Shown: positions 42,235 through 64,000 of the stretch, one piece after another
How positions within the stretch are numbered: the first letter of the stretch is position 1
Layout of the letters: each line of letters opens with the position of its first letter
Position numbers and translations under genes: made by a program
Notes under the pieces: model-generated
What the model was told of the DNA's origin: nothing
Database searches by the model: none
Seen by the model: only the letters and a program-made list of their open reading frames with translations
Origin: an uncultured delta proteobacterium
Lineage (GTDB): Bacteria; Desulfobacterota; Zymogenia; Zymogenales; Zymogenaceae
Assembly (NCBI GenBank): GCA_963735595.1
Contig: CAVTLK010000002.1
Location: 192,001 to 256,000, forward strand
Length of the DNA: 64,000 nt
Direction: 5' to 3'

Positions 42235-43005
42235 CTATTTCACTTTAACCACAATAAAGGACTTTCCATCCGGGGAGACGAAGAAGTTCCGAGTCCCGTC
42301 AACCTGCAGGTTATAGAAGGTCCCCGTCTCGTTAACGTGCACGATTGAGGTGAGGGTGAATTTCTCGAGCTCGGCGCCGTCTAACGCGCTGAATCCGTAG
42401 AGGGTGGCATAGGGCTTCAGGGCCTGCGATTCGATCGTCGTTACCGGTGTAATCCTGGTGCTCGCCGGAGTGAGGCCGAATTCCTTGGCATAAAACGGGT
42501 GTCCCGCTGTTACCGTCAAGCCGCCGTTGAGGATATAGAAGCCGTTCTGCACCGCCGGGTCGTTGCCGAGCACGTCGCACGAGGTAAACCGCCTGGCGGT
42601 AAAATCATATCCCATGACCTTCTCGCCGGACGTGATATCCCGTATCATTTTCATCGAACCGTCGGCCATCATCACAAATGTGTTGCCGGAGAAGCACTTG
42701 GGCTTTGTCGGCACGGGATTTCCCTTATCGCGCCCGGCTTCGTTTGATGAGTTTGAGGACGGGGAAACATGGCAGATGGGCGTGCCGTTCTCGTCGGTTC
42801 CGACCACGAAGACGTCGTACCACCTGTTTTCCGCGAAGTTATAGACCGGCTCAGCCTTGCCGTCTATCACGTAGACGTTGGAGAATCCCTCGAGGGGCAG
42901 ACCCTCGGGACCGACGATAACCCCCTCGACGGCACCGGCCGAGATCGAAAAAGCGAGAACTAACATTAACGCCGAAATGATCGATAAAATAGCACGTTTC
43001 TTCAT
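42235..43005 (-). CDS. Secreted protein with C-terminal Hint (intein-like) domain
   Basis: Signal peptide (..ISAGA); Hint block A CFSGNTFVMMADG, block B TAGHPF (TxxH), block F FYNLQVDGTRNFFV; AAGGAGA RBS. Confidence 0.8.
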   Translation of the reverse strand: MKKRAILSIISALMLVLAFSISAGAVEGVIVGPEGLPLEGFSNVYVIDGKAEPVYNFAENRWYDVFVVGTDENGTPICHVSPSSNSSNEAGRDKGNPVPTKPKCFSGNTFVMMADGSMKMIRDITSGEKVMGYDFTARRFTSCDVLGNDPAVQNGFYILNGGLTVTAGHPFYAKEFGLTPASTRITPVTTIESQALKPYATLYGFSALDGAELEKFTLTSIVHVNETGTFYNLQVDGTRNFFVSPDGKSFIVVKVK

Positions 43006-43345
43006 AGCGATCTCCTTTGAATTGCGTAACAAATTAATAACATGCTTTTGGCAGGATGTCAATGAAGTAATATTACTAAAAGTAATATATAATAATCGTT
43101 AATTTACCGCCTGGACCTGCTTTTCACGTGACAGGGCAGGTGAACCGGTCCCGAGCCGGCGTAACCGCCTAAGGCCGCAGAGGACCGGCTGATTGCCCGG
43201 TCATCTATTGGTCTTTCATTTTGCAACCCCGTTGGCGTACTTAAATCGAAAATAGTCGTTACGTCCAGATACGCGAAAAAATAATATATTGTCAAAATTA
43301 GGTCGGAAAGATACAATACAGGACAGGGATATATTTTGTGCCAAT

Positions 43346-50110: not shown

Positions 50111-50181
50111 GGTCTATAACACATACGCCATTAAAAAATAGGGGGTTAGATGTCTTTCTAACCCCCTGTCATTATTTCTAT

Positions 50182-50225
50182 GCGGCGTCGCAGCCCGGGA
50201 TTGATAGCCTTGGACACTCGGAATT
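50182..50225 (-). pseudogene. Degenerate tRNA-Phe 3' fragment (decayed att-like site)
   Basis: gcggcgtCGCAGCCCGGGATTGAtagccttGGACACTCGGAatt has exact 16- and 11-nt blocks shared with 52686..52731; hairpin agggggttaga/tctaaccccct at 50140-50167. Confidence 0.75.
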
Positions 50226-50631
50226 AGATAAGCCATTTTGAAATCAAGTAGCTCAAGAGTGCAGTAAGCGTACAAAGACACATGCCCCAGACTATGTCAG
50301 CTATAACGACGACCAATGGCCAGTTCTTAATCGTTGCCAGGTTCGACAAATCATAGGTCGCATAGGTAAAGAACCCAAACAGGGCACCCAGGACAGCGGC
50401 CTGTACCCACGAATTACTGTTCACCGCCGGCCGAACGGCAAAGATAAGGATGCCCACAATAAATATCAGGTAGAACGTGATGGCTGCCGCCCAATTGATA
50501 CTGGGACTTAGAATAAACCCAAGCTTTCTTTGGTAAAACCCCTTCGCGATAACACCCAGCCATAACATATCAATTGCGAAAAATACCGGTACCGTCAACG
50601 CGTAAAGCTTGAGGTAAAATGAAATACTCAT
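50224..50631 (-). CDS. DUF2177 family membrane protein
   Basis: IDMLWLG, AAITFYL, YATYDLSNLAT..NW....DIVWG. Confidence 0.85.
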   Translation of the reverse strand: MSISFYLKLYALTVPVFFAIDMLWLGVIAKGFYQRKLGFILSPSINWAAAITFYLIFIVGILIFAVRPAVNSNSWVQAAVLGALFGFFTYATYDLSNLATIKNWPLVVVIADIVWGMCLCTLTALLSYLISKWLI

Positions 50632-50790
50632 CGCATTCCCTCCTCTTAACGTTCTTGTTGGTTACTGTATGCCGTCAGTAAAAGGCTGAACTCCAACGGT
50701 CGGGTTCTAAGCTGCGTACCAGGCCTTGGCTATATCCTGAGAAAAGCTCTGACAATAACAGTCCTTCCTGTATTTTCCCTGTATACCTCC

Positions 50791-51570
50791 TTATCGCTTC
50801 TTGACAAACCAGGGGATCAAGACGCTTGTCCGCCTTCTGTATTCCTCGAAACCGGGGGTCTTTTCCATAAGTCGCTCGGTCATGGGTATCCCCGAGACGA
50901 GGACGATCATGAGCGTAATCGTCAGCGGGCCGACGAACCCGATCCACCCATAGGGAACCGACAGCGCGATAATATATATGCCCCACCACATCGTGATCTC
51001 ACCGAAATAGTTCGGGTGTCTCGTATAGCGCCACAATCCCCGATCCATGATGGTTCCCCGATTCTTTGGATTTGCCAGGAATTGGTCAAGCTGATAATCT
51101 CCCACGGACTCGAAGATGAACCCGGTCATCCAGATAAGAAGACCGCATGCATCGAGCACATTCAGGCTCCCGTCGCTTGTTGTGTTTATAATGAGAACCG
51201 GGCTGATGTTGACTAAAAGGATCGCTCCCTGGAGGAGGAAGACTTGAAGATAACTCCTCGGGACGAAGAAACGGCCCCACTCTTCCCGCCATTTTCGATA
51301 ACGTGGATCTTCCCCTCTGCCCCGGTTCCGACGAAAGATCCGTATCGAGAGCCTGCTTCCCCAGATCAGGACGAGGATGCAGGTCAGGAGCTGTCGCGGA
51401 TAAAAATTGCCGACAATCCACAACGTTAACCAGGCAACGATGACAAACCCAAATCCCCACGCGATATCGGCGACGCTGTTATCCTTGCGAATCAGTGCGA
51501 TGACGAAAAGTCCCGTCATGTAGCCGAAGATGATTATCGCCGCGATGAAGAACGTGTTTACCATTTCCAT
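50791..51570 (-). CDS. DUF1295 / steroid 5-alpha-reductase-like membrane enzyme
   Basis: DIAWG, EDPRY, ESVGDYQL, GLWRYTRHPNYFGE..WWG, SGIP. Confidence 0.88.
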   Translation of the reverse strand: MEMVNTFFIAAIIIFGYMTGLFVIALIRKDNSVADIAWGFGFVIVAWLTLWIVGNFYPRQLLTCILVLIWGSRLSIRIFRRNRGRGEDPRYRKWREEWGRFFVPRSYLQVFLLQGAILLVNISPVLIINTTSDGSLNVLDACGLLIWMTGFIFESVGDYQLDQFLANPKNRGTIMDRGLWRYTRHPNYFGEITMWWGIYIIALSVPYGWIGFVGPLTITLMIVLVSGIPMTERLMEKTPGFEEYRRRTSVLIPWFVKKR

Positions 51571-51657
51571 TGAAACACCTCCCCCTCCTCGTTTCCAACA
51601 AAGGCTGATCTCACAGGCATAGGAATTCTTTCTCGTAGATACGATACACGAGCTGAT

Positions 51658-52431
51658 TTACCTGCGAGGCAGGTTTCTCTCGAATCCCGACTTTATTATA
51701 TCTCTTATTTGTTCCACCGTGTCGTCAATCTTATCCCGGTCTTTTAGAGAGACCGAAACCGGCCGATGGATTTCCATAACGGCGCGACCGGGGAACAGCC
51801 TGGTCGTTCCGGGGGGGAGGATGGACCTCGTCCCCGAGATAGATACTGGGAGGATCGGTATACCCAGGTCCGTCGCCAGGGAAAAGGCTCCTTTCTTGAA
51901 AGGGCCGATTTCCCCCGTCTTGCTCCTTGTCCCCTCGGGTAAAATGACAACTGATGTCCCCTCCACGAGCTTTTTCTTGGCCGCCTCCAGGGAAGCGTTG
52001 GCGGCCTTGGGGCTGCTCCGGTCTATGTATATGTTTCCGCCCATCTTGCCGGCAAAACCAAATACCGGGACTTTTCTCAGTTCCTTTTTCATTACCCACT
52101 TAATGTCAATGCCGAGCCAGCCGTAGAGAACAAAAATATCGTATGAGCTTTGGTGATTTGAAACAATAACATATGACTGTCCCTTCTTGATGTTCTGTCT
52201 CCCGAGGACGGTCACACGCATCGGCGTGATATAGCTATTAAAGCGGGCCCACCAGACACCCGTCGTTCGATGGGCGACCTTGTCTCCACGGAGGATTACG
52301 ACGATAACGCCGAGAAACACGAAGAAAATAGTGGAAAGTATCAGTAAAGGGATGACGATTAGCCAGACATAGACCTGGTATATCCGGAAAGCGATTGGAT
52401 TTTCGCGGCGTAAAAATCTGCCCGGGGCCAT
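51658..52431 (-). CDS. Lysophospholipid acyltransferase (PlsC family)
   Basis: NHQSSYDI (HX4D), YIDR, LPEGTRS, FKKGAF. Confidence 0.9.
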   Translation of the reverse strand: MAPGRFLRRENPIAFRIYQVYVWLIVIPLLILSTIFFVFLGVIVVILRGDKVAHRTTGVWWARFNSYITPMRVTVLGRQNIKKGQSYVIVSNHQSSYDIFVLYGWLGIDIKWVMKKELRKVPVFGFAGKMGGNIYIDRSSPKAANASLEAAKKKLVEGTSVVILPEGTRSKTGEIGPFKKGAFSLATDLGIPILPVSISGTRSILPPGTTRLFPGRAVMEIHRPVSVSLKDRDKIDDTVEQIRDIIKSGFERNLPRR

Positions 52432-52684
52432 TACTGCTAACCTACTAAATACACTATTGTACTATTATAATAGAATACTTTTAAGAGTCAATGGTCGGGA
52501 AGTAGCTTCAGCTTTGCGGGGTTATTGGCTATTGAGGGAGTGGACAGCAAGAGAGTGGCGGAGGGTACAAGAAAGAATACCGAAATCCGCAGCCTAAACT
52601 CAGATTCCAATCGAAGCACCACCTGCGTATCCGGTAACACATCATAACAAAAGGGTTACGAAATATCGTAACCCCTTTATATCA

Positions 52685-52847
52685 GTGGTGCCGCAGCCCG
52701 GGATTGAACCGGGGACACTCGGATTTTCAGTAGCCTCGTCTTGACGATACTGTACTGACATCATTGTATTTTCAATTCCCTACGATGCCCTCGAGTGCCC
52801 CGGAATGCCCTCCAATACCCGGCTTTTGTAACACTTTTTGTAACAGT
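52685..52847 (+). repeat. ~163-bp direct repeat, copy 1 (att-like junction: tRNA-Phe 3' core plus structured arm)
   Basis: Matches 62056..62219; the first ~107 nt differ at one base. Confidence 0.95.
52686..52731 (-). pseudogene. 3' half of tRNA-Phe(GAA), anticodon loop to CCA; not a full tRNA
   Basis: Minus strand A-CTGAAAA-TCCGA-GTGTC-CCCGG-TTCAATC-CCGGG-CTGCGGC-ACCA; the 5' half (GCCGCAG..D-arm..TCGGA) is absent. Confidence 0.9.
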
Positions 52848-52925
52848 ATCAAACGGATAGGCATATCGAGTATCCTTATAGGAAGACCTTGGTTTGTCCT
52901 TCAATAATCCATCACCTGCCAAGTC

Positions 52926-54512
52926 TTAGAGGGTACGACGAATTCTGTCATCGAGTAGTAGCTTCTTCTCGATCGCCTTACGCACTGTTTTGGCAAGAAC
53001 GTTATAGTCAAAGGGTTTCTCAATATAGTCATAAGCACCGAATTTAACCGCTGCAATCGCCGAGTCCTTATCCGCGTTTCCGGTGATAATGACCACCTGA
53101 GAATTAGGAGACTTGGATTTTACTTCTTTGAGTACCGCTATGCCGTCTTTCTTCGGCATGACGATATCGACAACGATGACATCATGTCTTTTAGTACCGT
53201 ACTCCTCGATAGCCTGCTGACCGTTTTCAGCCAGATCGACGCTCAGAAAGCCGTCGTCCTCCAGATATTCCTTGATCGTCTTTCTTATATTCGGTTCGTC
53301 ATCGGCGATCAGTATCTTCGCGTTGAAAACATCCTCCTTATTGATCTCGGGCAAGGGGCTGGTTTCCAGCAGGTTGTCAATTACCTCATCCTCCGCAAAG
53401 GAAATCTCTTCTTTCTGGATAGAGTACCTTCGCCCTTTCAGTAGGTTCCAGATATAGTACGCAAGCTCCTCTATAAAGAAATCTTCGCCGTGCTCCGAAT
53501 GGCTTTTCTGTTTGACGACCTTCTCCGGTTTTTTCAGGAAGTACGATGCCCCCATAAAGAGGGATTTCAGTTTTGTTTTGGGATCCGCGACTGACGTCAC
53601 GACTATAACGGGCACGTAGGGATAGTTATCTCTCAAATACGCCATGAGATCGTTTCCGCCGTATTTTTCTCCTTCGTCGGAGAGCCCCTTGATTTCAAGT
53701 TCCGTGACAAGCACGGCCGGAATTCTCTGGGTTTCGTATTCAATAATTCTGCCGAGAGCTTCTTCAGCCGTACTAAAACGTACCGTTTCAAAACCGAATT
53801 CCGTAAGACCGTCGGCGACGGCCCTTCCCGTTTCGGGGTTATTATCCACGACCACCACGACTTCGTTCGGCCTAAAGGCTCCGATCCTCTTCGCAACGCT
53901 CTCAATGGTCATCTTGATTCTTTCGCTGGTGATATCGTTTTCGTTGGTGGCTATTCTCCTAACGGAGGCAAACAGGTTGCTATGGGGCATGCCCACCGCC
54001 GCTTGTACTTCGCGTCGCCTTGTTGGGCCCCCTTCTTGGCTTCCTTCTACTTTCTCAATATCTATCAATATCTCCTCGGGGACGTTTGAATAGGAGTCCT
54101 CGTAAAACCGATATAGACCGCTCCAGAGAAACATGCTTCTTAGAACTAATTTGGAGTTATCGTTTACTATACGGCAGAAAGACTCCCGGGACAGAAAGCC
54201 TTTTCCTACTAAGTGGGATTCCAGGATATTATTCGGTTCGACCTTCTGTACCTCTAATAGCTCATTGATCTGGGTTTCGCCGACAAGTCCCTGCCGGGTG
54301 AGGTTTTCTCTAAGAGTGGCATACATTCCTGGGGAAAAAACCATGGCAATGTAACCCTCGTAGAGCGCGATGAATCCGTCCCCGTCCCGGGAACTGATGT
54401 TAAGCTCTCCCGTGAGCCCGTTTGTTTTTATCGTCTTCAGGATAAGGGATAGCTGTCCGCTCTTAAAGCTCCCGGACGGAATGCGTTTATAGATTCCAAC
54501 AGCCTGGTTCAT
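52926..54512 (-). CDS. Response regulator with DUF4388-like N-terminal domain and two receiver domains
   Basis: N-terminal L..IL......LTGEL.I...G.I....G.I...W.G.Y.F pattern; atypical REC (VTELEIKG) plus canonical REC (IADDE, VDIVMP, GAYDYIEKP). Confidence 0.75.
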   Translation of the reverse strand: MNQAVGIYKRIPSGSFKSGQLSLILKTIKTNGLTGELNISSRDGDGFIALYEGYIAMVFSPGMYATLRENLTRQGLVGETQINELLEVQKVEPNNILESHLVGKGFLSRESFCRIVNDNSKLVLRSMFLWSGLYRFYEDSYSNVPEEILIDIEKVEGSQEGGPTRRREVQAAVGMPHSNLFASVRRIATNENDITSERIKMTIESVAKRIGAFRPNEVVVVVDNNPETGRAVADGLTEFGFETVRFSTAEEALGRIIEYETQRIPAVLVTELEIKGLSDEGEKYGGNDLMAYLRDNYPYVPVIVVTSVADPKTKLKSLFMGASYFLKKPEKVVKQKSHSEHGEDFFIEELAYYIWNLLKGRRYSIQKEEISFAEDEVIDNLLETSPLPEINKEDVFNAKILIADDEPNIRKTIKEYLEDDGFLSVDLAENGQQAIEEYGTKRHDVIVVDIVMPKKDGIAVLKEVKSKSPNSQVVIITGNADKDSAIAAVKFGAYDYIEKPFDYNVLAKTVRKAIEKKLLLDDRIRRTL

Positions 54513-54574
54513 CTCTTATGCACCTCAAAGATTGTGCGCCGCAGTGACACCCGGAGTCCCCTTCGGACTTGTTT

Positions 54575-57475
54575 TCAATCGTTAGATAGGACTTCACTCA
54601 ATACTACTAGTATATCTTGAATTTCAAAGGGCTTTTCGATATATCTGTTGCCCGTGATATTCAAGAACTGCTGCGTTTCCTGGCCGAGGACGTCGCCGGT
54701 AATGAATATAATTCTTTTTGCAAGATCGGGATTCTGATTGACCAGGTAAGCGTATAATTCCTTGCCCCCCATCGTCGGCATCTTTATGTCGGAAATAACA
54801 GCGTCGAACTTCCCTTTTTTCAGAATTTCGACGGCCTTCAGGCCATTGTTGGTCGATTCAACAAAGTAACCCTCGCCCGTGAGGGTCTCTGTGATCATCT
54901 CACGCAGGGTGTCTTCGTCGTCGACGATCAGAATTGTCATATTCCCGGCGGGTTTATTTAGCACTTTCCTTTCGTGTGTGACTATAGGTTCCACATGCCT
55001 TACTACGGGTAATTCAATAATGAATTTCGTGTACTCTCCTGCTTTGCTTTCCACTTCTATCATCCCACCATGTTCGGCGACGATGCCGTAAATAATGCTG
55101 AGGCCAAGCCCGGTACCCTTGCCTACTTCCTTGGTGGTAAAGAATGGATCGAAGATCTTTTTTCGGTTTTCCTCGGGGATGCCGTCCCCATTGTCGGTGA
55201 ATTCGATGCGTACTTCTCCGTCCATATAACGGGAGCCGATTGTTACCGTACCGCCTTTTTTATTTATAAGGGCATCATGGGCATTGTTGATGAGGTTGAT
55301 GAACACCTGCTGGAACTGGAAGGGGTCGACGGCCGTCTCGGGGAGGTCGGCTGCAAGATCCAGTTTTATAGCGACGTTATCCACCCGCAACTCATACTCC
55401 CTGAGTTTGCAGGATTCCATGATGATATCGTTAATGTTAAGTATCTTTCGTTCGGGTTTGTGCTCCCGGGCGAACGCCAGCAGGCCGCTAACGATCTTCG
55501 TGCACCGGATGGATTCTTTCTGGATTGTCTCCAGCTTCTCCTTATACTCGCTCGGGATTTCCTTTCGCGTCAGGAGCTGGGCGTTGCCGATAATGGCGGT
55601 CAGGGGGTTGTTCAGCTCGTGGGCGACGCCGGACAATATCCCGCCCAGGCTGGAGAGTTTCTCCATCTGGAGGATGCGCTCTCCCATCCTCTTGGCGTCG
55701 CTAACATCCCTGATGATACCCTGAATACTACTGATGTCCCCATCATCGTCTTTACGGGCCGTTGCCGTGATGAGACAGTCGACAAGCTCGCCGTTTTTCT
55801 TCTTTAAGATCACCTCATAATCCTTCACAAACCCTTCTCTGACTAGCTTCCTCATGAGCGATTCACGGTCACGCGGGTATTTATAGATATCATCTAACTG
55901 TATTTCAAGTAACAAATCCCTGGTATACCCGAGGAGTTCTTCACCGGTACGGTTGATATCGATGAACCTCCCCTCTTTGGTGGACAGGTAAATGACGTCC
56001 TTGGAGGATTCGAAGAGGTTTCGCCACTTTTCTTCCGACTCTCTGATCCTGATCTCCCCCAGCCGTTGGGACAGCGCCATCGCGACGCTGTCTGAAAGCC
56101 TTTCGAATAGCGAGATCAACTCCGGGGTGAAACATCCCTTTCTTTTATCGTTAAACTGAATCAGCCCGAACGTCTCGCTTCCGTAGCGCAGCGGGACGAG
56201 CGCCACCGACTCGTACCCCTCGCCGTTGCACCTGTTCCTTATGCGCGCCTGCCGATCATTTTCAGTAGTGGTTGCTAAAAGCCCGGTCGTGCTATTCGTC
56301 CAGTAACTCCCGTTCTTGGTGAAGAATGGCTTTGAGGGATCGAAACGCCCCCGTATGACGTTGCCGCACATGCACTCCAGTATCGGATTGCCCGCATCAT
56401 CGCGCAGCAATTGCCCCGATTCGTCATACGCGCACAGTCGCCTCTCCAGCTCGACGAATCCCTCATGGAAACCCTTTGTCTCGAAGTAGGGGAAATCCTC
56501 CCCGTCCTGAAGCCTGATGCCCACCGCCTCAACCCCGAACGACTCATGGAGAGCCGCTATTAGAGATTTTATGAGTTCGGTGATGTCGTACGTAGTATTA
56601 ATGGAGCGCAGGACCTTTAACGTTGTCTCGCGTTCATGTTCTAACTCCTTCTGCTCGGTGATGTCCTGGAAGGTCCCCGTGAGCTTTACCACCTTGCCGT
56701 TAGTCGTCACCGCCCGGCCGATCGCGCGGGTCCAGAGATGCCGCCCTTTCGCGCTGGTGAACGGGAGCTCAAGATCGTACGAGTCTCCCTTCTCGATGCC
56801 ACGGCGCATTGCCTCCTCAAGAACGGCCCGGCCAGGCTCATCAAAAAAAAGAGCCGCTTTCGACAGACGGATACTTTCTCCTTCGTCAACCTCGTGAATC
56901 CTGTAGGTCTCTCTCGTCCAGTGGACCTCCTTTGTGTCGGCTAAGAGCTCCCAGCCACCCACATGCGCCATGGTGCCGACCTCATTGAGCAGGGTTTCGC
57001 TTTCCAGCAACGCTGCCTCCGCCTTCTTCCTCTCCATAAGCTCCCGGCGAACTTCCTCAAGGAGCCGCCGGTTTTCCAACACCAGGCGTTGCTTTTCGAG
57101 AACGTCGGCGACCTTTCCCAGGACCTCATCCATGTTCAGCGGCTTGGTGATGTAGCCCGCCGCCCCCTCGTTGAGGGCGCGCACCGACGTGTCAAGGGAG
57201 GCGAATCCGGTGGCCATTATGACCGCAATATCGGGATTGATCTCCTTTAAAGGCTTGATCAGCTCGATCCCTAATATATCGGGAAGCCTGATATCTAAGA
57301 GGGCTAAGTTGAAGAACTTCCCCGTCACCGCGGCAAGCGCCTCCTTTCCCGTCCCGGCCGTGTGCGTCTCATAGCCCTTCTTCTTGAAAATCAAAGAAAG
57401 GCTCTTTCGGGTGCTCTCATCGTCATCGACGATCAGGATGTGTGCTTTCTCTTCCATCTTCGTGCCTGTTTTCAT
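54575..57475 (-). CDS. Hybrid sensor histidine kinase (REC-PAS-GAF-PAS-HisKA-HATPase-REC)
   Basis: IVDDD/DIRLP, VGGWE PAS, Cys-rich GAF ([12 protein letters not shown]), [18 protein letters not shown]. Confidence 0.9.
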
Positions 57476-58224
57476 CGTTTGCGGTATTTCTTACGCACTA
57501 TTTCATCCACCATTCTGAGGAGGACCTCGATGTCAAAGGGCTTGTAGATGCAGGTGTAGGCGTCGCTTTTTATGGCATCATTAACCAGTGTCTCCGTCTC
57601 CTGCCGATACGCGGTAGTCATGACGGCCACCGTTTCCGGACTGACCTTCTTGAGGGAAAGATAGGTTTCCAGGCCGTTTATCGTCGGCAGTTTCATGTCG
57701 ATGAAGATGATCCGGTATTTCTTCTTTTTTGCCATCCGGATCGCCTCTTCGCCCGTATGGGCGATGCCGGTCTCGTATCCTTTTCGCGTGAGGATATTTT
57801 TCAGGGTAACGCACGTGCTCTCGTCGTCATCCACCACAAGGATAAAGCCCCCGTCTTTGCTTTTCATCGCGTCGTCGATGAGGGCGGTCACCGTTTCGAT
57901 ATCTATGGGCTTGTACAGTACTCCGCCCACCCCTTCTCTCAGGGCTTCCTGGATCAGCTCATCGACCGCATACGCGGTCATCATCATGACGACGGCCTCG
58001 GGACGTATCTTCTTAATCTCTTTATATGCCTCAACCCCGTTCATGACAGGCATTTTGATGTCCATGAAGATGACGTCAAACGGCCTCTCCTTGACCCTCT
58101 CGATAGCCTCAGACCCGTCCTTGGCGGTGGCGACCTCGTACCCCTTGCGCTTGAGGATAAGAGAGATCGTCCGGGTCTGGCTTTCGTCGTCGTCCACGAT
58201 TAAAATAGCAGGATTCTTTTCCAT
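57472..58224 (-). CDS. Tandem double-receiver response regulator with no output domain
   Basis: Two REC domains (IVDDDE..MDIKMP..KP; VVDDDE..IDMKLP..KP). Confidence 0.88.
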   Translation of the reverse strand: MEKNPAILIVDDDESQTRTISLILKRKGYEVATAKDGSEAIERVKERPFDVIFMDIKMPVMNGVEAYKEIKKIRPEAVVMMMTAYAVDELIQEALREGVGGVLYKPIDIETVTALIDDAMKSKDGGFILVVDDDESTCVTLKNILTRKGYETGIAHTGEEAIRMAKKKKYRIIFIDMKLPTINGLETYLSLKKVSPETVAVMTTAYRQETETLVNDAIKSDAYTCIYKPFDIEVLLRMVDEIVRKKYRKR

Positions 58225-58225
58225 G

Positions 58226-60109
58226 TTACCTTCTCTCCCCGATGCCGACGGGCAGCCGGACCGTAAACGTGCTGCCCTTGCCGACCCTGCTCTTTACCTT
58301 GATCGTCCCCCCGTGGCCCTCGATCAGGGTCTTGGTGAGCGCGAGACCCAGGCCCACGCCCTTGGCCTTTGTGGTAAAGAGCGGCTCAAAGACCTTCTTG
58401 ATATTTTCCTCGGAGATGCCGGCGCCCGTATCCGTAACGGAGACGGCGACATGCCCGGCGTCTGAGGTTTCGGTCTTTATCGTCAATTTCCCCCCCTCGT
58501 GCATGGCCTGAGCCGCGTTTCTAATGATATTCCCGAACACCTGCCCAAGCTGATCAGGATCGGCAAGGACGGTCGGTAGCGATCCCCACTCGCTGGATAC
58601 GGCGACGTTTTCAGGCATGGTTATGCGGGACAACGACTCTTTGACCACCTCGTTGATATCGGTCTTTCGCATAACGGGCAGTTTTGGGCGGGCAAAGCTG
58701 AGAATACTGTTAATGATTCCCTCGGAAATCTCCACCTCTTTGCCGATGATCTCTATGGATTCGCTAACCTCGGGGTCCGGTTTCTCTACCGCCATCTTGA
58801 GGAAGTAGGCGGCGTTCTTGATGGCCCCCAGCGGATTTCTCAGCTCATGAGCCACTCCGCCGGCCAACTGGCCCAGAAGCGCCAGTTTCTCACCGCGGAT
58901 GAGTTGATCCTGGGCGTCTTTGAGTTTTTGGATCATCTTCTCAAAGGCAACGGCGAAACTGCCAAGCTCGTCCTTCCTCTTGAGTAGTTCGGGATCGACC
59001 TTCACGTCGAGTTTCCTTGAGGCGACCTCACATGTCATCACCGTCAGTCTATTGATTGGCTTAATAATCGACAACGATAAGGATATGACGATGAGTATAC
59101 CGGTAATAACAAACACGAGTGAAGTTATCCCCATCACCCTGCGCAGTGCTAATATCGGCTTGAGGACTTCTTTCGCGTCGTATGAGACCAGAAGGATCGC
59201 GTTGAGGCCCCGGTAACCGAGATACGGTTGGGAGCGGGCGTAGGAAAAGAGTTTTTTCTTGCCGCCTACTTTGGCTATGAAAAATCCGTCATTTCCTTTG
59301 ATCTCTTTATAGAAGCTCTTTCCCGACATGTCTTCGAGAAAGGAAAAGGCATTCGTCGCGTAGATAAGCTTGCCTTCCTGCGTGATCAGCCTGATTTCCA
59401 TCGTCTCGGAGGTTTTTTTTGAGATCTCCGCCTTGGTAACGACGTCCTTGAGGCTCAGGATGCCGCCGATCACCCCGATGAAGTTACCCTGGTCGTCGTC
59501 TACCCTGACAACGGTGTTGACCCCGTACGTATCCGAGCTCTCGTCGTAAAAGATATCGCTGACGAAAGAGCCTTTGTCCCGCGCGTTCTTCCAGTTATCG
59601 TACGTATCGTTCCGGTAACCGGATGTCCGGCCGGTAACGGCCACGGCCGCTCCGTATTTGTTCGTGACGATGATCTCGCTGAAGACGGTGTACCCGTATT
59701 TCCTGTCGTAAAAATCGATGAACTCGCTCCTCAGTGAGGCCGACAGCCTGTTATCCATGATCCCCCTCACGAAGGGGTCCTCCGAGCCGGGCGGGGCCGA
59801 AACCCATTCCTTGTCCCTTCGGCTTAGGTACTCCTCGATATCGGGGATACTCTGGAATTCCCTGTTCGATGCCTCGAGCGTCTCCTGCAGCAGGTCGTGT
59901 TTCGAATGTATTTGGAGAAGCTCAGTTTTATTATATATGTACTGGTTCATCCGATCGAGCATCTCCTCGGTGACAAGTACCGTGTTACTGCCGATGGATT
60001 GTTCCAACGCCTTCTGGCTCATAACCACCAGGTAGAGCGCCATGGCGACCATTAAAAGCAGCATCAGCAGAAAGCCGATAGAGAGCCTCGTTCCTATCTT
60101 CATGATCAT
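58226..60109 (-). CDS. Membrane sensor histidine kinase (Cache-like periplasmic domain, HAMP)
   Basis: Two TM segments, HAMP (DELGSFAVAF), GVAHELRNPL, FEPLFTTK, GLGL. Confidence 0.9.
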   Translation of the reverse strand: MIMKIGTRLSIGFLLMLLLMVAMALYLVVMSQKALEQSIGSNTVLVTEEMLDRMNQYIYNKTELLQIHSKHDLLQETLEASNREFQSIPDIEEYLSRRDKEWVSAPPGSEDPFVRGIMDNRLSASLRSEFIDFYDRKYGYTVFSEIIVTNKYGAAVAVTGRTSGYRNDTYDNWKNARDKGSFVSDIFYDESSDTYGVNTVVRVDDDQGNFIGVIGGILSLKDVVTKAEISKKTSETMEIRLITQEGKLIYATNAFSFLEDMSGKSFYKEIKGNDGFFIAKVGGKKKLFSYARSQPYLGYRGLNAILLVSYDAKEVLKPILALRRVMGITSLVFVITGILIVISLSLSIIKPINRLTVMTCEVASRKLDVKVDPELLKRKDELGSFAVAFEKMIQKLKDAQDQLIRGEKLALLGQLAGGVAHELRNPLGAIKNAAYFLKMAVEKPDPEVSESIEIIGKEVEISEGIINSILSFARPKLPVMRKTDINEVVKESLSRITMPENVAVSSEWGSLPTVLADPDQLGQVFGNIIRNAAQAMHEGGKLTIKTETSDAGHVAVSVTDTGAGISEENIKKVFEPLFTTKAKGVGLGLALTKTLIEGHGGTIKVKSRVGKGSTFTVRLPVGIGERR

Positions 60110-60121
60110 CTCCTCCCATCC

Positions 60122-61219
60122 CTATCTCAGGTATTCGATTTTACCGTCGACAATCCGAGCCGGGTACAGGGGATAGTCCATATCATGCCCGCCGGGCTTG
60201 ACCGTGATATCGCCGAATACGCCGGGATACGTAAGTCCGCCGGACAACAGCTTCCTAACGGATTCTCTTGATAGCTCCTTTTCTTCGAGGAGGCCCGGCA
60301 GCAGTTTGATAAAATCATACCCGGTAGCTGCCTGTTGGCTCAGCGGTTTCCCATACCGTGTCTCGTATTTCTTCTTCAGTTCTTGAACTAAAATAAAATC
60401 AGGATGATACAGGATGGATGTGGCGATATTTACACCGTTGGCCTCGGGAGTTGTCTCAGCATACATGGAGAAACCCGAGACCGCGAGAATAGAACCTTTA
60501 TAGCCGCTTTTTTTCAGCTCTTCGATTGCTGTCCTTGCGCTATTGGCGAAAGCGACGACGTAGATCGCCTCCATATCCTTTAGCCGTCCGATCTTATCTC
60601 CAAATATGGGATTTGATGTGTCAAAGGATTCACCCTGCACGATCCCGCCCGTCTTTTCAAACTGAGCTTTCAGCGGATCATAAACGGAGCGGCCGTACTC
60701 GTCATTCTGGTAGAGGATTCCGACTTCTTTAGCCTTTAAATCCTCCAACAAGTACAGGGCGATTTTCGCTTCATCATCGGAGGACGTATAGTATCTGAAT
60801 ACCCAGTCGTTCTGTTTCGACAGTTCGGGATCAGATACCACCACGCCGACCAGGACTACCCCGTGCTCCTTAGCCAGAGGGGCCAGCGCCATGGAAACTG
60901 AGCTGTTTGTAGAGACGTACAAAAGGGGATGGTAGGTTGACTCAATCTTCTCGAAGACCTTTTTTGCCTCTTCCGGGTCGGATTTGCTGTCCTCGACGAT
61001 CAACTCCAACTTCCTCCCGTTTACACCGCCCCATTCGTTGATCTCGTCAACCGCCAGCATCATGCCATCCCTAACCTCTACAAGATGAGAGGACGCACCG
61101 GTGAGCGAGATGATAGCGCCGATCTTGATGGTCTCCTTCTTAAAGGAGCATGTCGCGGCGAAAAGGCAGATTGTCGCCGTAAACAGAAAGATCAGTAACA
61201 GAGAGAGCATTTTTTTCAT
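60122..61219 (-). CDS. Periplasmic substrate-binding protein (LivJ/LivK-like type 1 PBP) without adjacent permease
   Basis: IKIGAIISLTG, EIN..GGVNGRKLELIVEDS, NDEYG, GYD. Confidence 0.85.
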   Translation of the reverse strand: MKKMLSLLLIFLFTATICLFAATCSFKKETIKIGAIISLTGASSHLVEVRDGMMLAVDEINEWGGVNGRKLELIVEDSKSDPEEAKKVFEKIESTYHPLLYVSTNSSVSMALAPLAKEHGVVLVGVVVSDPELSKQNDWVFRYYTSSDDEAKIALYLLEDLKAKEVGILYQNDEYGRSVYDPLKAQFEKTGGIVQGESFDTSNPIFGDKIGRLKDMEAIYVVAFANSARTAIEELKKSGYKGSILAVSGFSMYAETTPEANGVNIATSILYHPDFILVQELKKKYETRYGKPLSQQAATGYDFIKLLPGLLEEKELSRESVRKLLSGGLTYPGVFGDITVKPGGHDMDYPLYPARIVDGKIEYLR

Positions 61220-62055
61220 TTACGGTCTCCCGTTTCTTATATGATGCATGGCCCATCGCGGTAGCCTGTCTCTCAATAGGCCGCCTGGTATACGCGTTTT
61301 CGATAGATCGACGCACTGAAGAATACAAATCGTACTTTCGCGTTTACTGCATCAGGTTATTTGTATTAATAAACTCGCGAAGGTAATCTATCAACAAGAA
61401 ATCCATCGATACTCAGCGTTTCTTCTTCTTGCCGGTCAAAAAAAGGAGATTCTGGGCGACTCGTCGGCTGCTTGCTAGGCTTTCTGCATACAAGGCGTCC
61501 GTCTTATTCGCGTGATCTGCGTAGGTTGTGGTGTGAGTTGAATGAAGAGTATTCGAACGGTATCGTGCGGAGGTGGCCGAAGTGACATAGCAAACATTGA
61601 TGATCCAAGTAATAGTAATCACTTATCGTTGAATTATTAAAACTTACTATATATTTTACTATATTGAAATGACTTTGTCAAAATAAATGGTTTAAAGGGC
61701 AGGGCTGAAATTAATAAAGAAGAACATTCCGAATAGAACTGGCTCATTTCTTTGCATAAATGAATTCAATTACCGCCGAAACGCCCAGTATACTCCTCCC
61801 GGATACCTTCGGTGGTGTGCTTGGTATAACGCCCGTTTTTGATTGTCGAATGATACGGGAGCCGTTTAAGCTTCGCAAGGTTATTGGTATCGTTAGGAGA
61901 ATAAGCGGCAAGGGGATGATAAATAGCGGGGCACTAAGAATAGAATTCAGGGCCAAATCCCGACATACATCAAGTTATTTCAAATATATCCTATAACACC
62001 CATAGCTATTCATAAAAGAGGGATTAGGTGCATACCTAATCCCTCACTATGAACG

Positions 62056-62219
62056 GTGGTGCCGCAGCCCGGGATTGAACCGGGGACACTCGGATTTTCA
62101 GTAGCCTCGTCTTGACGATAATGTACTGACATCATTGTATTTTCAATTCCCTACGATGCCCTACATTGCCCTAGAATGCCCTACAATGCCCCGGTTTCTG
62201 TAACACTTTTTGTAACAGT
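62056..62219 (+). repeat. ~164-bp direct repeat, copy 2 (att-like junction)
   Basis: Matches 52685..52847; preceded by hairpin gagggattagg/cctaatccctc at 62018-62045. Confidence 0.95.
62057..62102 (-). pseudogene. 3' half of tRNA-Phe(GAA), second identical copy
   Basis: Identical to 52686..52731; 5' half again absent. Confidence 0.9.
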
Positions 62220-62621
62220 TTTGTAAATGACAATCAGAGTATTGATTTAAGTTAGTGTGTCTCGGAAGCAGTACCTGATTTACAGTACCGCCTGCGTGCG
62301 CGGGCTCGTTCTCTGATACTAGTCGACACTATTCAACCCCAGGTTATATCGCCTATGGACCAATAAAATCATACCTATGGGCCGGACATATATGATAATA
62401 AACTGACTTTATTTTCAATTGACCAAGTATACAGTATTCGATACTATACTAATCAGCCAATGAAATAATGAGAGAGGGTTTTTCGCTGTTTTATTAATAT
62501 GATCTAAACGAGAGCTTGATTTGTCTTTCTTATCTTGATTGCTAAAAAAGGCAGTGATCTTTCTTGGTGGTAATGCCTTCGTACAATCAAATAGTGCCAA
62601 CAACAAAATTAGGGGGAGAAA

Positions 62622-62987
62622 ATGAAAAAAACCGCTCTTTCTTTTGTGCTGGTATTAATCGTGCTTGTTTCTTTTATGCTCGGCCGTGCTAACGCGGGTG
62701 ACATTTCACTATATGGTGAAGACCTGTACGATTCCGAGGGTTATAATTATGGCGTGAATTACTATGCCGACAACAACACCGGTTCGGACCTTTACGCCGT
62801 CGTCTATATTACGTCTCAAGAGAACGTAAACGGTGACTGCGTGTACGGTATGATACTACTGGCTCCGTATGAATCGCATGTCCTTGTCGGCTCATTCGCA
62901 ACCGCCGATTATAACTACGGGTGGTCTGTCAATATAAGCGCTAATTACGGCCCCAGCCCGGAACAGGTGGACGCGCCGCCGTACTAA
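62622..62987 (+). CDS. Hypothetical secreted Tyr-rich protein
   Basis: GGGGGAG RBS; signal peptide ending ANA; 121 aa. Confidence 0.7.
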   Translation: MKKTALSFVLVLIVLVSFMLGRANAGDISLYGEDLYDSEGYNYGVNYYADNNTGSDLYAVVYITSQENVNGDCVYGMILLAPYESHVLVGSFATADYNYGWSVNISANYGPSPEQVDAPPY

Positions 62988-63198: not shown

Positions 63199-63654
63199 AT
63201 GAAAAAGGCGTTTGCGGTTTTCTTTGTTCTCCTTCTCGGGTGCGGCATGGTCGGTAGTGCTGTCGAGTTTTCCACCGTGGCCGAGGGGACCCACGCGGCG
63301 GGGATCACCGGGAAGGTCAACGAGGTCTTTACCGACCAGGCGTCCTTTTACGCCTTCTGGAAGCTGGTTTCGGCCGGCACGACCCCCGAGCCTGCCGCGC
63401 CGGCGATAGACTTCGCGAAAGATATGGTCATCGCGGTCTTCCCGGGCCAGATGAACTCGGGCGGGTACACCGTCGAAATCACCGAAGTAACGAGCGACCG
63501 CAAGAAGCTCATGGTAACGGTCGTTGTGACCAAGCCCACGGGCTTCGCGACGACGGTCATGACCCAGCCCTACCACATCATTAAGGTCAAGAAGACAGAA
63601 CTTCCGGTCGATTATACGTGGGAGGAGCGGACTTCGGATTCAGCTAATGAATGA
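63199..63654 (+). CDS. PrcB C-terminal domain protein (protease complex subunit PrcB family)
   Basis: IDFAKDMVIAVFPGQMNSGGYTVEI...TVMTQPYHIIKV; signal peptide; GAGGTG RBS. Confidence 0.8.
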   Translation: MKKAFAVFFVLLLGCGMVGSAVEFSTVAEGTHAAGITGKVNEVFTDQASFYAFWKLVSAGTTPEPAAPAIDFAKDMVIAVFPGQMNSGGYTVEITEVTSDRKKLMVTVVVTKPTGFATTVMTQPYHIIKVKKTELPVDYTWEERTSDSANE

Positions 63655-63755: not shown

Positions 63756-64000
63756 ATGGAAATTGAATATCTTGTTTTTGTTCTGTTTCCTCTATTGGTT
63801 ATGTTGCTACAGGTTGCCCTGTACGTCCTGGTCAGCGTTTTCGCTCCGAGCTTGTTATTATGGAAAACCGCAAGTATTGCACGGGCAGGCGACCACGCAT
63901 TTAAGAAGGCCCTCGTTACGTCCCTGAAAGCCACTCTCGTGATCTGGATTGCGGTCATTCTTCTTGTTTTAATGTTTTATAAGCCGGGAGTAGTCATGCC
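63756..64000 (+). CDS. Hypothetical membrane protein, truncated by window end
   Basis: AAGGAGGAGG RBS; frame MEIEYLVFVLFPLLVMLLQVALYVL... stays open to position 64000. Confidence 0.65.
   Translation, partial: MEIEYLVFVLFPLLVMLLQVALYVLVSVFAPSLLLWKTASIARAGDHAFKKALVTSLKATLVIWIAVILLVLMFYKPGVVM

Follow-up and report, generated by a model that had tools for sequence, protein, structure and literature searches.

Background

Integrons consist of an array of interchangeable gene packets together with an integron integrase and attC hairpin sites. A similar array of interchangeable packets is present in a stretch of 64,000 nucleotides (the window) from an uncultured delta proteobacterium of the family Zymogenaceae (GenBank assembly GCA_963735595.1, contig CAVTLK010000002.1, positions 192,001–256,000), in which units with unrelated cargo are separated by 3' halves of tRNA-Phe(GAA). 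An earlier note, made from the sequence alone, had read this stack as an integron-like cassette platform served by one integrase in trans. Unlike an integron, however, the window revealed neither an integron integrase nor an attC-like hairpin, and its units harbor several genes and meet at tRNA halves. Altogether, our analysis classified the stack as an accretion of deletion derivatives like that of cis-mobilizable elements (CIMEs), and not as an integron. With a probability of about 0.6, the units are CIME-like deletion derivatives of a family-wide tRNA-targeting element, which probably went on moving after loss of the integrase.

Integrase-less island stacks at tRNA genes are already known. 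As far as the available part of PMC5704250 goes, CIMEs derive from integrative and conjugative elements (ICEs) or integrative and mobilizable elements (IMEs), have lost the integration and transfer genes, kept their attachment (att) ends, and were stacked by tandem accretion at one target gene. The window units resemble them in the gene loss, in the tandem stacking at one target, and, as far as these are preserved, in the att ends, but differ in having ends of one standard form throughout a bacterial family and at seven tRNA types, in a deletion leaving the stump of a second, small recombinase, and in that no active element is adjacent in the source genome. For the ssrA islands of Dehalococcoides, the accessible portion of PMC3146451 describes tandem islands with target-gene repeats between them, 15 of which have no integration module and were proposed to be cis-mobilizable. 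Tandem module-less units separated by target-gene repeats are also found in the window. While the Dehalococcoides islands, according to the same portion, have a tmRNA target, a serine integrase, and a 20-bp repeat, the system studied here involves tyrosine integrases, crossover in the anticodon loop, a 115-bp arm, and many tRNAs.

The anticodon-centred class of Islander is characterized, according to PMC4383910, by an intact tRNA gene with a displaced 3' fragment in the same orientation, crossover in the anticodon loop, and target-switching integrases. The window stack displays the same features, with the units lying between the intact tRNA-Phe and its displaced fragments and the crossover placed at the anticodon loop by tRNA identity from position 31 and a fixed arm-to-loop spacing. 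Since Islander and TIGER, as far as their available descriptions show, demand an integrase gene per island, the window units, which hold only stumps of a second recombinase, would be skipped by both. Prochlorococcus tycheposons are described in the accessible part of bioRxiv 10.1101/2020.12.28.424599 as tRNA cargo elements with tandem copies split by partial tRNAs, remnants pushed outward, and swapped integrase modules. Here, too, several tRNAs hold cargo, partial tRNAs stand between tandem copies, older remnants lie on the outside, and an integrase module was apparently swapped, but the tycheposons of that part carry their own integrase and often a replication module, whereas the window units have neither. 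A literature search, which mostly did not cover subscription journals, revealed no paper naming Zymogenaceae, nor the name Zymogenus among the papers listed. What is new are the details, namely the standardised ends, a stump cut mostly at codons 102–141, and signs of spread after integrase loss.

Structure of the tRNA-Phe stack

The stack consists of three units (2.5, 9.4, and 3.8 kb) and an arm-only scar beside the intact tRNA-Phe. Read in tRNA direction, a unit is composed of the tRNA half, a hairpin, an arm-type motif, the stump of a small recombinase, the cargo, and an arm, which was lost in unit 1. In the following, G000 denotes the source genome, G001–G009 its family relatives, C a contig, and L a fetched locus. 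The features are as follows.

50115..50167, minus strand: outside the last tRNA fragment, one arm-type motif (50115-50122) plus a terminator-like hairpin (50140-50167), facing the phoU end
50183..50225, minus strand: decayed tRNA-Phe 3' half, the oldest right attachment site (attR); arm deleted here, partly kept in G003
50224..50631, minus strand: unit 1 cargo, DUF2177 membrane protein (PF09945, E 5e-47)
50791..51570, minus strand: unit 1 cargo, DUF1295 membrane protein (PF06966, E 3e-71)
51658..52431, minus strand: unit 1 cargo, acyltransferase (PF01553, E 6e-33)
52476..52592, minus strand: unit 1 stump of the 186-aa tyrosine recombinase, about codons 125-165 (blastn E 2e-9; nhmmer E 4e-7)
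52633..52674, minus strand: left end of unit 1 with a single arm-type motif, decayed (52633-52640), plus a terminator-like hairpin (52653-52674)
52686..52731, minus strand: tRNA-Phe(GAA) 3' half, positions 31-76, 46/46 to the intact tRNA
52732..52847, minus strand: unit 2 right arm, 83/94 to the arm of the G001 full element
52926..61219, minus strand: unit 2 cargo, five signalling genes, assigned by Pfam domains
61771..61918, minus strand: unit 2 stump of the 186-aa tyrosine recombinase, about codons 137-186 (tblastn E 3e-8; nhmmer E 2e-16)
61992..62045, minus strand: left end of unit 2 with a single arm-type motif, decayed (61992-61999), plus a terminator-like hairpin (62018-62045)
62057..62102, minus strand: tRNA-Phe(GAA) 3' half, positions 31-76, 46/46 to the intact tRNA
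62103..62219, minus strand: unit 3 right arm with five 10-bp-spaced repeats (62145-62191) and paired arm-type repeats (62199-62218), 87/95 to the G001 full-element arm
62622..62987, plus strand: unit 3 cargo, 121-aa protein with signal-like start, no family
63199..63654, plus strand: unit 3 cargo, PrcB C-terminal domain protein (PF14343, E 5e-12)
63756..64000, continuing to G000:C2 257213, plus strand: unit 3 cargo, 485-aa WG-repeat membrane protein (PF14903, E 6e-103)
G000:C2 257408-257600, minus strand, beyond the window: unit 3 stump (blastn E 4e-14, nhmmer E 1e-18)
G000:C2 ~257620-257773, minus strand: arm-only scar, 72% to the arm over 72 nt

The two full copies of the 163-bp repeat (52685-52847 and 62056-62219) differ in 11 of 164 columns (93% alike), all of them in the non-tRNA part, and in both copies tRNA identity begins one base ahead of the anticodon loop. 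A third, decayed copy (50189-50225) revealed 84% identity over 37 nt with a local score of 41, while elsewhere in the window the best matches of 20 shuffled queries scored 20–28 and the real query 23–24. Alignment and shuffle test thus confirmed the three same-orientation tRNA-Phe 3' halves noted before, with arm sequence shared by the two full copies, and the tandem att-type junctions were borne out by a whole-genome repeat search and tRNA alignment. The intact gene, which had been predicted to the right of the window, was identified by ARAGORN 1.8 kb beyond its end (G000:C2 257827-257902, minus strand) and is the sole tRNA-Phe(GAA) of the genome. Directly after it, the scar displays a terminator, a full arm, a short decayed core, and no cargo. 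Each tRNA half is followed by its own terminator-like hairpin, the sequence of which differs from half to half. The right arm of unit 2 harbors target-specific bases by the loop, five 10-bp-spaced repeats (52774-52820), and paired arm-type repeats (52827-52846); we take the 10-bp repeats to be candidate excisionase sites.

The units have a G+C content of 48.5–50.7%, compared to 60.7% in the 10 kb right of tRNA-Phe. Unit 2 encodes a DUF4388 protein with two receivers, a hybrid PAS/GAF histidine kinase, a double receiver, a dCache-HAMP histidine kinase, and a periplasmic binding protein. Unit 3, the third segment noted before to start at about 62220, encodes three predicted exported or membrane proteins and reaches on past the window. 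Pfam analysis of eight open reading frames (ORFs) of units 1 and 2 and three of unit 3 revealed no integrase, excisionase, phage, or conjugation family; to this extent the earlier statement that the segments lack such genes holds, but a decayed 3' piece of a tyrosine recombinase is present in each unit. A search against Rfam resulted in no match, and an integration host factor (IHF) consensus gave only two-mismatch matches and was not used. Apart from the stack, the window encodes a 275-aa Hint-type domain protein (42235-43062, minus strand) adjoining the pho/pst operon.

Occurrence of the arm and the units in the family

The 164-bp repeat was matched in all nine family relatives, in seven of which the non-tRNA arm was covered at E < 1e-10; outside the family, matches in 17 of 31 genomes comprised the tRNA part only. 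In 16 aligned junctions the distance from the arm to the anticodon loop was fixed, and likeness ended at the outer repeat. Seven tRNA targets of the arm were found, namely Phe(GAA), Ala(GGC), Arg(TCT), Arg(TCG), Pro(TGG), Pro(GGG), and Pro(CGG). Which ten bases stand ahead of the loop depends on the target, with three Phe junctions, three Arg-TCT junctions, and two Pro-TGG junctions each being alike among themselves. On sequence grounds, this points to several target-specific integrases with common arm recognition. Switching of targets is frequent among tRNA integrases, according to the part of PMC4383910 available. Since the arm is found beside seven tRNA types, together with bases specific to the target, and no matching integrase was detected in the assembly, a single integrase in trans does not fit.

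Comparison with relatives also revealed different cargo, as had been anticipated. G003, the PhoU of which is 98% identical, shares the flanks and only unit 1 (93.5%), which agrees with the prediction that the oldest unit lies on the left. In place of units 2 and 3 it harbors one unrelated 9.9-kb unit with GH94 domains, and part of the arm is still kept at its oldest junction. G002 and G005 carry other genes behind tRNA-Phe and no second tRNA-Phe half. The unit 2 block was absent from all nine family relatives searched, with domain-level matches of at most 1.1 kb only, while two unit 3 genes occur singly elsewhere (79–80%). The cargo of unit 1 was also found upstream of the same arm in two relatives, about 110 bp from it at tRNA-Arg(TCT) in G001, and separated from it by a DUF2177-like gene at a tRNA-Pro piece in G004; the short loci fetched around this cargo from G007 and G008 displayed no arm.

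Within the source genome, a tRNA-Arg(TCT) fragment likewise has the arm next to it (81% over 107 nt), as do, in part, islands at Thr and Leu tRNAs. These islands at Thr(CGT) (C1 133568-151775) and Leu(CAA) (C5 50629-60976) showed no integrase match, and the former likewise begins with a small-recombinase stump. Two further islands without an integrase match, at Pro(GGG) (C1 645402-648466) and Met(CAT) (C2 714353-724532), have two fragments each. Inverted att pairs at tRNA-Arg(TCG) in G003 were dropped as candidates, as they lie inside fold-back palindromes of 19 kb and 8.4 kb; such palindromes (L040, L041; G003:C3, end of G003:C2) are likely assembly artefacts. The cargo beside the arm in L040 and L041 is 81–85% similar to the tRNA-Met cargo of the source genome (C2 722283-724413).

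The full-length element and its deletion series

A 46-kb island at tRNA-Ala(GGC) in G001 (contig C48) holds a 376-aa integrase, named IntB here, and a whole small recombinase. Its order is tRNA, hairpin, paired arm repeat, IntB, core, small recombinase, cargo, a right arm of the kind seen in the window, and tRNA-Ala 3' half; the paired arm repeat is present at either end. In the core we identified an excisionase-like helix-turn-helix (HTH) protein, weak VirB4/HerA-like ATPases, a Cas4-like nuclease, an FtsZ/tubulin-like protein, an SNF2-like helicase, and a DUF6094 methyltransferase. The Cas4-like nuclease adjoins the HerA-like ATPase, and the excisionase-like HTH lies within a 1120-aa protein (L113-L114). 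The best recombinase matches of this island were to models of the archaeal XerA type. The island may be composite.

Behind IntB-type genes, the paired arm repeat was found again at tRNA-Pro(TGG) in G009 and at tRNA-Asn in G004. As the repeats of four other members of the IntB family are different ones, it is a mark of one IntB subgroup. Binding of IntB to the paired repeat would be in line with this arrangement. Arm-binding domains are typical of phage and ICE integrases, as stated in the available part of bioRxiv 10.1101/542381.

A deletion series links the full element to the cut-down unit. L154 harbors a 5'-cut integrase of another type and a whole small recombinase, G004:C201 the last 44 IntB codons followed by the stump, and G004:C162 and the window units the arm motif followed by the stump. 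Like CIMEs, the window units have lost integration and transfer genes, the full parent form being that of G001. attR is kept in units 2 and 3 (arm 88–92% to the full element, tRNA half 46/46), while in unit 1 it is decayed and the arm is lost. At the left attachment site (attL), the tRNA half and hairpin are kept; of the paired arm repeat, units 1 and 2 retain a single decayed copy and unit 3 a near-whole version.

The small recombinase and its stumps

The whole small recombinase comprises 186 aa and is a catalytic domain alone (PF00589 over residues 8–172). Among 72 matches we identified 17 close relatives with 58–91% identity, two of them short pieces, and the catalytic R-K-H-R-H-Y set forms invariant columns in 16 aligned homologues. 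A whole-genome protein search of ten family genomes revealed no more than a single intact copy, one that is near-whole, and a long partial one. In a metagenome scan with the small-recombinase alignment, one of 80 kept loci (L154) was a true family member, the others being distant (29–38%).

A stump profile was searched against the source genome and the fetched family loci, which had been picked via arm or recombinase matches, and gave 41 distinct matches, three of which were dropped (contig edge, local duplicate, weak match). The remaining 38 gene copies start at codon 1 (3 copies), codon 51 (1), codons 102–141 (31), or later (3). A tRNA or tRNA piece lies within 420 bp upstream in 21 of the 35 partial copies and in none of the other 14. 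Stumps are 62–65% identical to intact genes and the two intact genes 84% to each other; for several stumps, the closest match is an intact gene (89% and 88%).

Two other explanations for the position of the stumps were considered. In SSV-type elements the att site is said to lie inside the integrase gene, but such a split-integrase model was rejected here, as no open frame runs through arm, tRNA half, and stump. Cassettes targeting the small-recombinase gene itself were unsupported, the 14 copies without an upstream tRNA piece sharing no upstream sequence by eye. Stumps without a tRNA piece within 420 bp upstream lie, e.g., at G000:C2 365585-365747 and C1 1007707-1007857.

Integrases of the source genome and its relatives

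Genome-wide, PF00589 detected an XerD-like gene, a split XerC-like gene, and one 376-aa island integrase at tRNA-Arg(TCT) in the source genome. The latter (C5 908598-909728) was rejected as a helper, being 25% identical to IntB with a different flanking repeat. The XerC-like gene (C2 414456-414963) is split over two frames, possibly by an indel error, and is whole in G003 (316 aa). No IntB-type integrase was detected in the assembly of the source genome, which is 93% complete and leaves the absence unproven; in addition, contig C5 ends inside an element 92–96% like the G001 core, about 800 bp before the expected small recombinase. This element (C5 908536-941710, at tRNA-Arg(TCT)) combines the G001-like core blocks with a different integrase type, an apparent swap of the integrase module relative to the tRNA-Ala element of G001. 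With an IntB profile, whole or long members were found in G001, G007, G008, and G009, and only short IntB tails or distant recombinases in the other six family genomes, including the source genome. Viral contigs revealed no IntB relative and seven raw arm-motif matches. As noted before, no integrase lies inside or beside the units. Recombinase remnants, which the earlier note had named as a sign against its reading, are present in them, though they derive from the second, small recombinase and not from the integrase.

Probable origin and spread of the units

Several observations argue for spread after loss of the core, which we consider likely. Arms are 88–96% similar to the arm of the full element and tRNA halves are 46/46, compared to 62–65% for stumps and intact genes, and the same junctions and scars were re-used. 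The left ends of unit 1 in G000 and G003 are 89% alike, but those of the younger units only 62–63%, so the younger units do not represent the same slot. Two tandem Phe units of G004 have the terminator (42/42) and the junction (49/53) in common, but not the cargo. The junction of the new unit in G003 matches unit 1 at 43/66 positions and the intact gene at 26/57. Furthermore, the scar by tRNA-Phe is 68–72% similar to scars at tRNA-Arg in G001 and G005, compared to 43–53% to right arms. A spread of units without their own integrase, as suggested before, is thus plausible.

Based on these data, the paired arm repeats would be the binding sites of IntB-type enzymes, which would cross over in the anticodon loop and differ from variant to variant in the tRNA targeted. 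With every arrival, the tRNA would be restored and older units displaced outward. Large deletions from the tRNA side may then remove integrase and core, halting in the last third of the small-recombinase gene. Less firmly, a passing full-length relative could have supplied the integrase that then excised the cut-down units and inserted them again, and cargo could have been swapped by RecA-type crossovers in the shared stump and arm. We favour both acting, a borrowed integrase for new slots and RecA for cargo exchange. In the source genome today, the stack is most likely fixed cargo.

Some findings weigh against this reading. The left arm site of units 1 and 2 is one decayed repeat, so integrase-driven excision should be hindered. 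No IntB variant was found beside tRNA-Phe in ten family genomes, wider genome contigs, or viral contigs, and the enzyme for this site is therefore only inferred. Among the tested G001 core ORFs there was no relaxase or capsid family, and no transfer origin or packaging signal was identified. The stump tree is a star without resolution (one of 20 inner branches well supported), a shared-derived-base test of the three Phe units gave a weak result (28 columns vs 16–24 expected), and for the junction of unit 2, no clearly greater similarity to the other Phe units was seen (30/64 to 33/65). Finally, a near-whole small-recombinase pseudogene is present in G004:C76, and the small recombinase could decay within a still-active element.

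The units could instead have decayed in place, i.e., full elements with their own Phe-specific integrase arrived and later lost the core, with no movement afterwards, which corresponds to the three-step route for CIMEs in the available part of PMC5704250. The decayed left arm sites are in accordance with this, as are the breakpoints, which differ among copies (codons 51 to 169); as they vary and several stumps are closest to intact genes, deletions must have occurred more than once. We nevertheless regard decay in place as rather unlikely, since it leaves unexplained why fresh arms and perfect tRNA halves stand beside stumps diverged by 35–38% and why the same post-deletion junction or scar occurs with different cargo and at different tRNAs. 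A programmed drop-off, in which the small recombinase or another enzyme excises the core within its own gene and locks in the cargo, would account for the clustering of start points, only four of which lie before codon 100, and the intact protein keeps its catalytic residues. However, the copies are related, so that the clustering does not reflect 31 independent events, the junctions are not at a single base but spread over about 40 codons, where local-alignment starts blur with decay, and the upstream DNA joined differs (arm motif, integrase tail, scar, cargo ends); such a drop-off seems very unlikely.

The integron-like platform, with one resident integrase loading and shuffling cassettes, was suggested by tandem units with near-identical ends and unrelated cargo, but is largely refuted. 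No matching integrase was detected in or near the window or genome-wide in the 93%-complete assembly, and with 69 bits for the small recombinase and 80 for IntB, both scored far below the integron integrase cut-off of 265. The arm folds are weak and not common to both copies (z -2.6 to -0.5, with one fold out of four outscoring every shuffle), without a stable shared hairpin, and different tRNA targets have different bases beside the loop. An assembly artefact, i.e., a collapsed or duplicated repeat, has next to no probability. Though split genes resembling indel errors occur in G000 and fold-back contigs elsewhere in G003, the copies of the repeat differ at 11 positions within unique flanks, and in G003 the phoU flank, unit 1, the junction, and the right flank were recovered independently.

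Implications

This case, in which integrase-less units probably represent deletion derivatives of a full element, adds a resolved series that leads from the complete element down to the mini-unit in an uncultured family, one arm being used again at seven tRNA types. Whether decayed islands remain mobile through a borrowed integrase can be tested on it directly. The arm being kept while the target is changed, the junctions form a natural set of sites useful for studying how tyrosine integrases switch tRNA. Moreover, the stack shows a class of islands that is passed over by integrase-requiring catalogues such as Islander and TIGER.

More tentatively, and with odds we would put below even, the family may maintain an economy of non-autonomous mini-elements with standard ends, moved by helper integrases that share arm recognition and use different tRNAs. 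The left standard end would consist of tRNA half, terminator, arm motif, and recombinase stump, and the right one of the 115-bp arm. Stump and arm would then serve as homology hooks at which full elements pick up and drop cargo. If this were true, the stump would be a kept part of the units and not debris.

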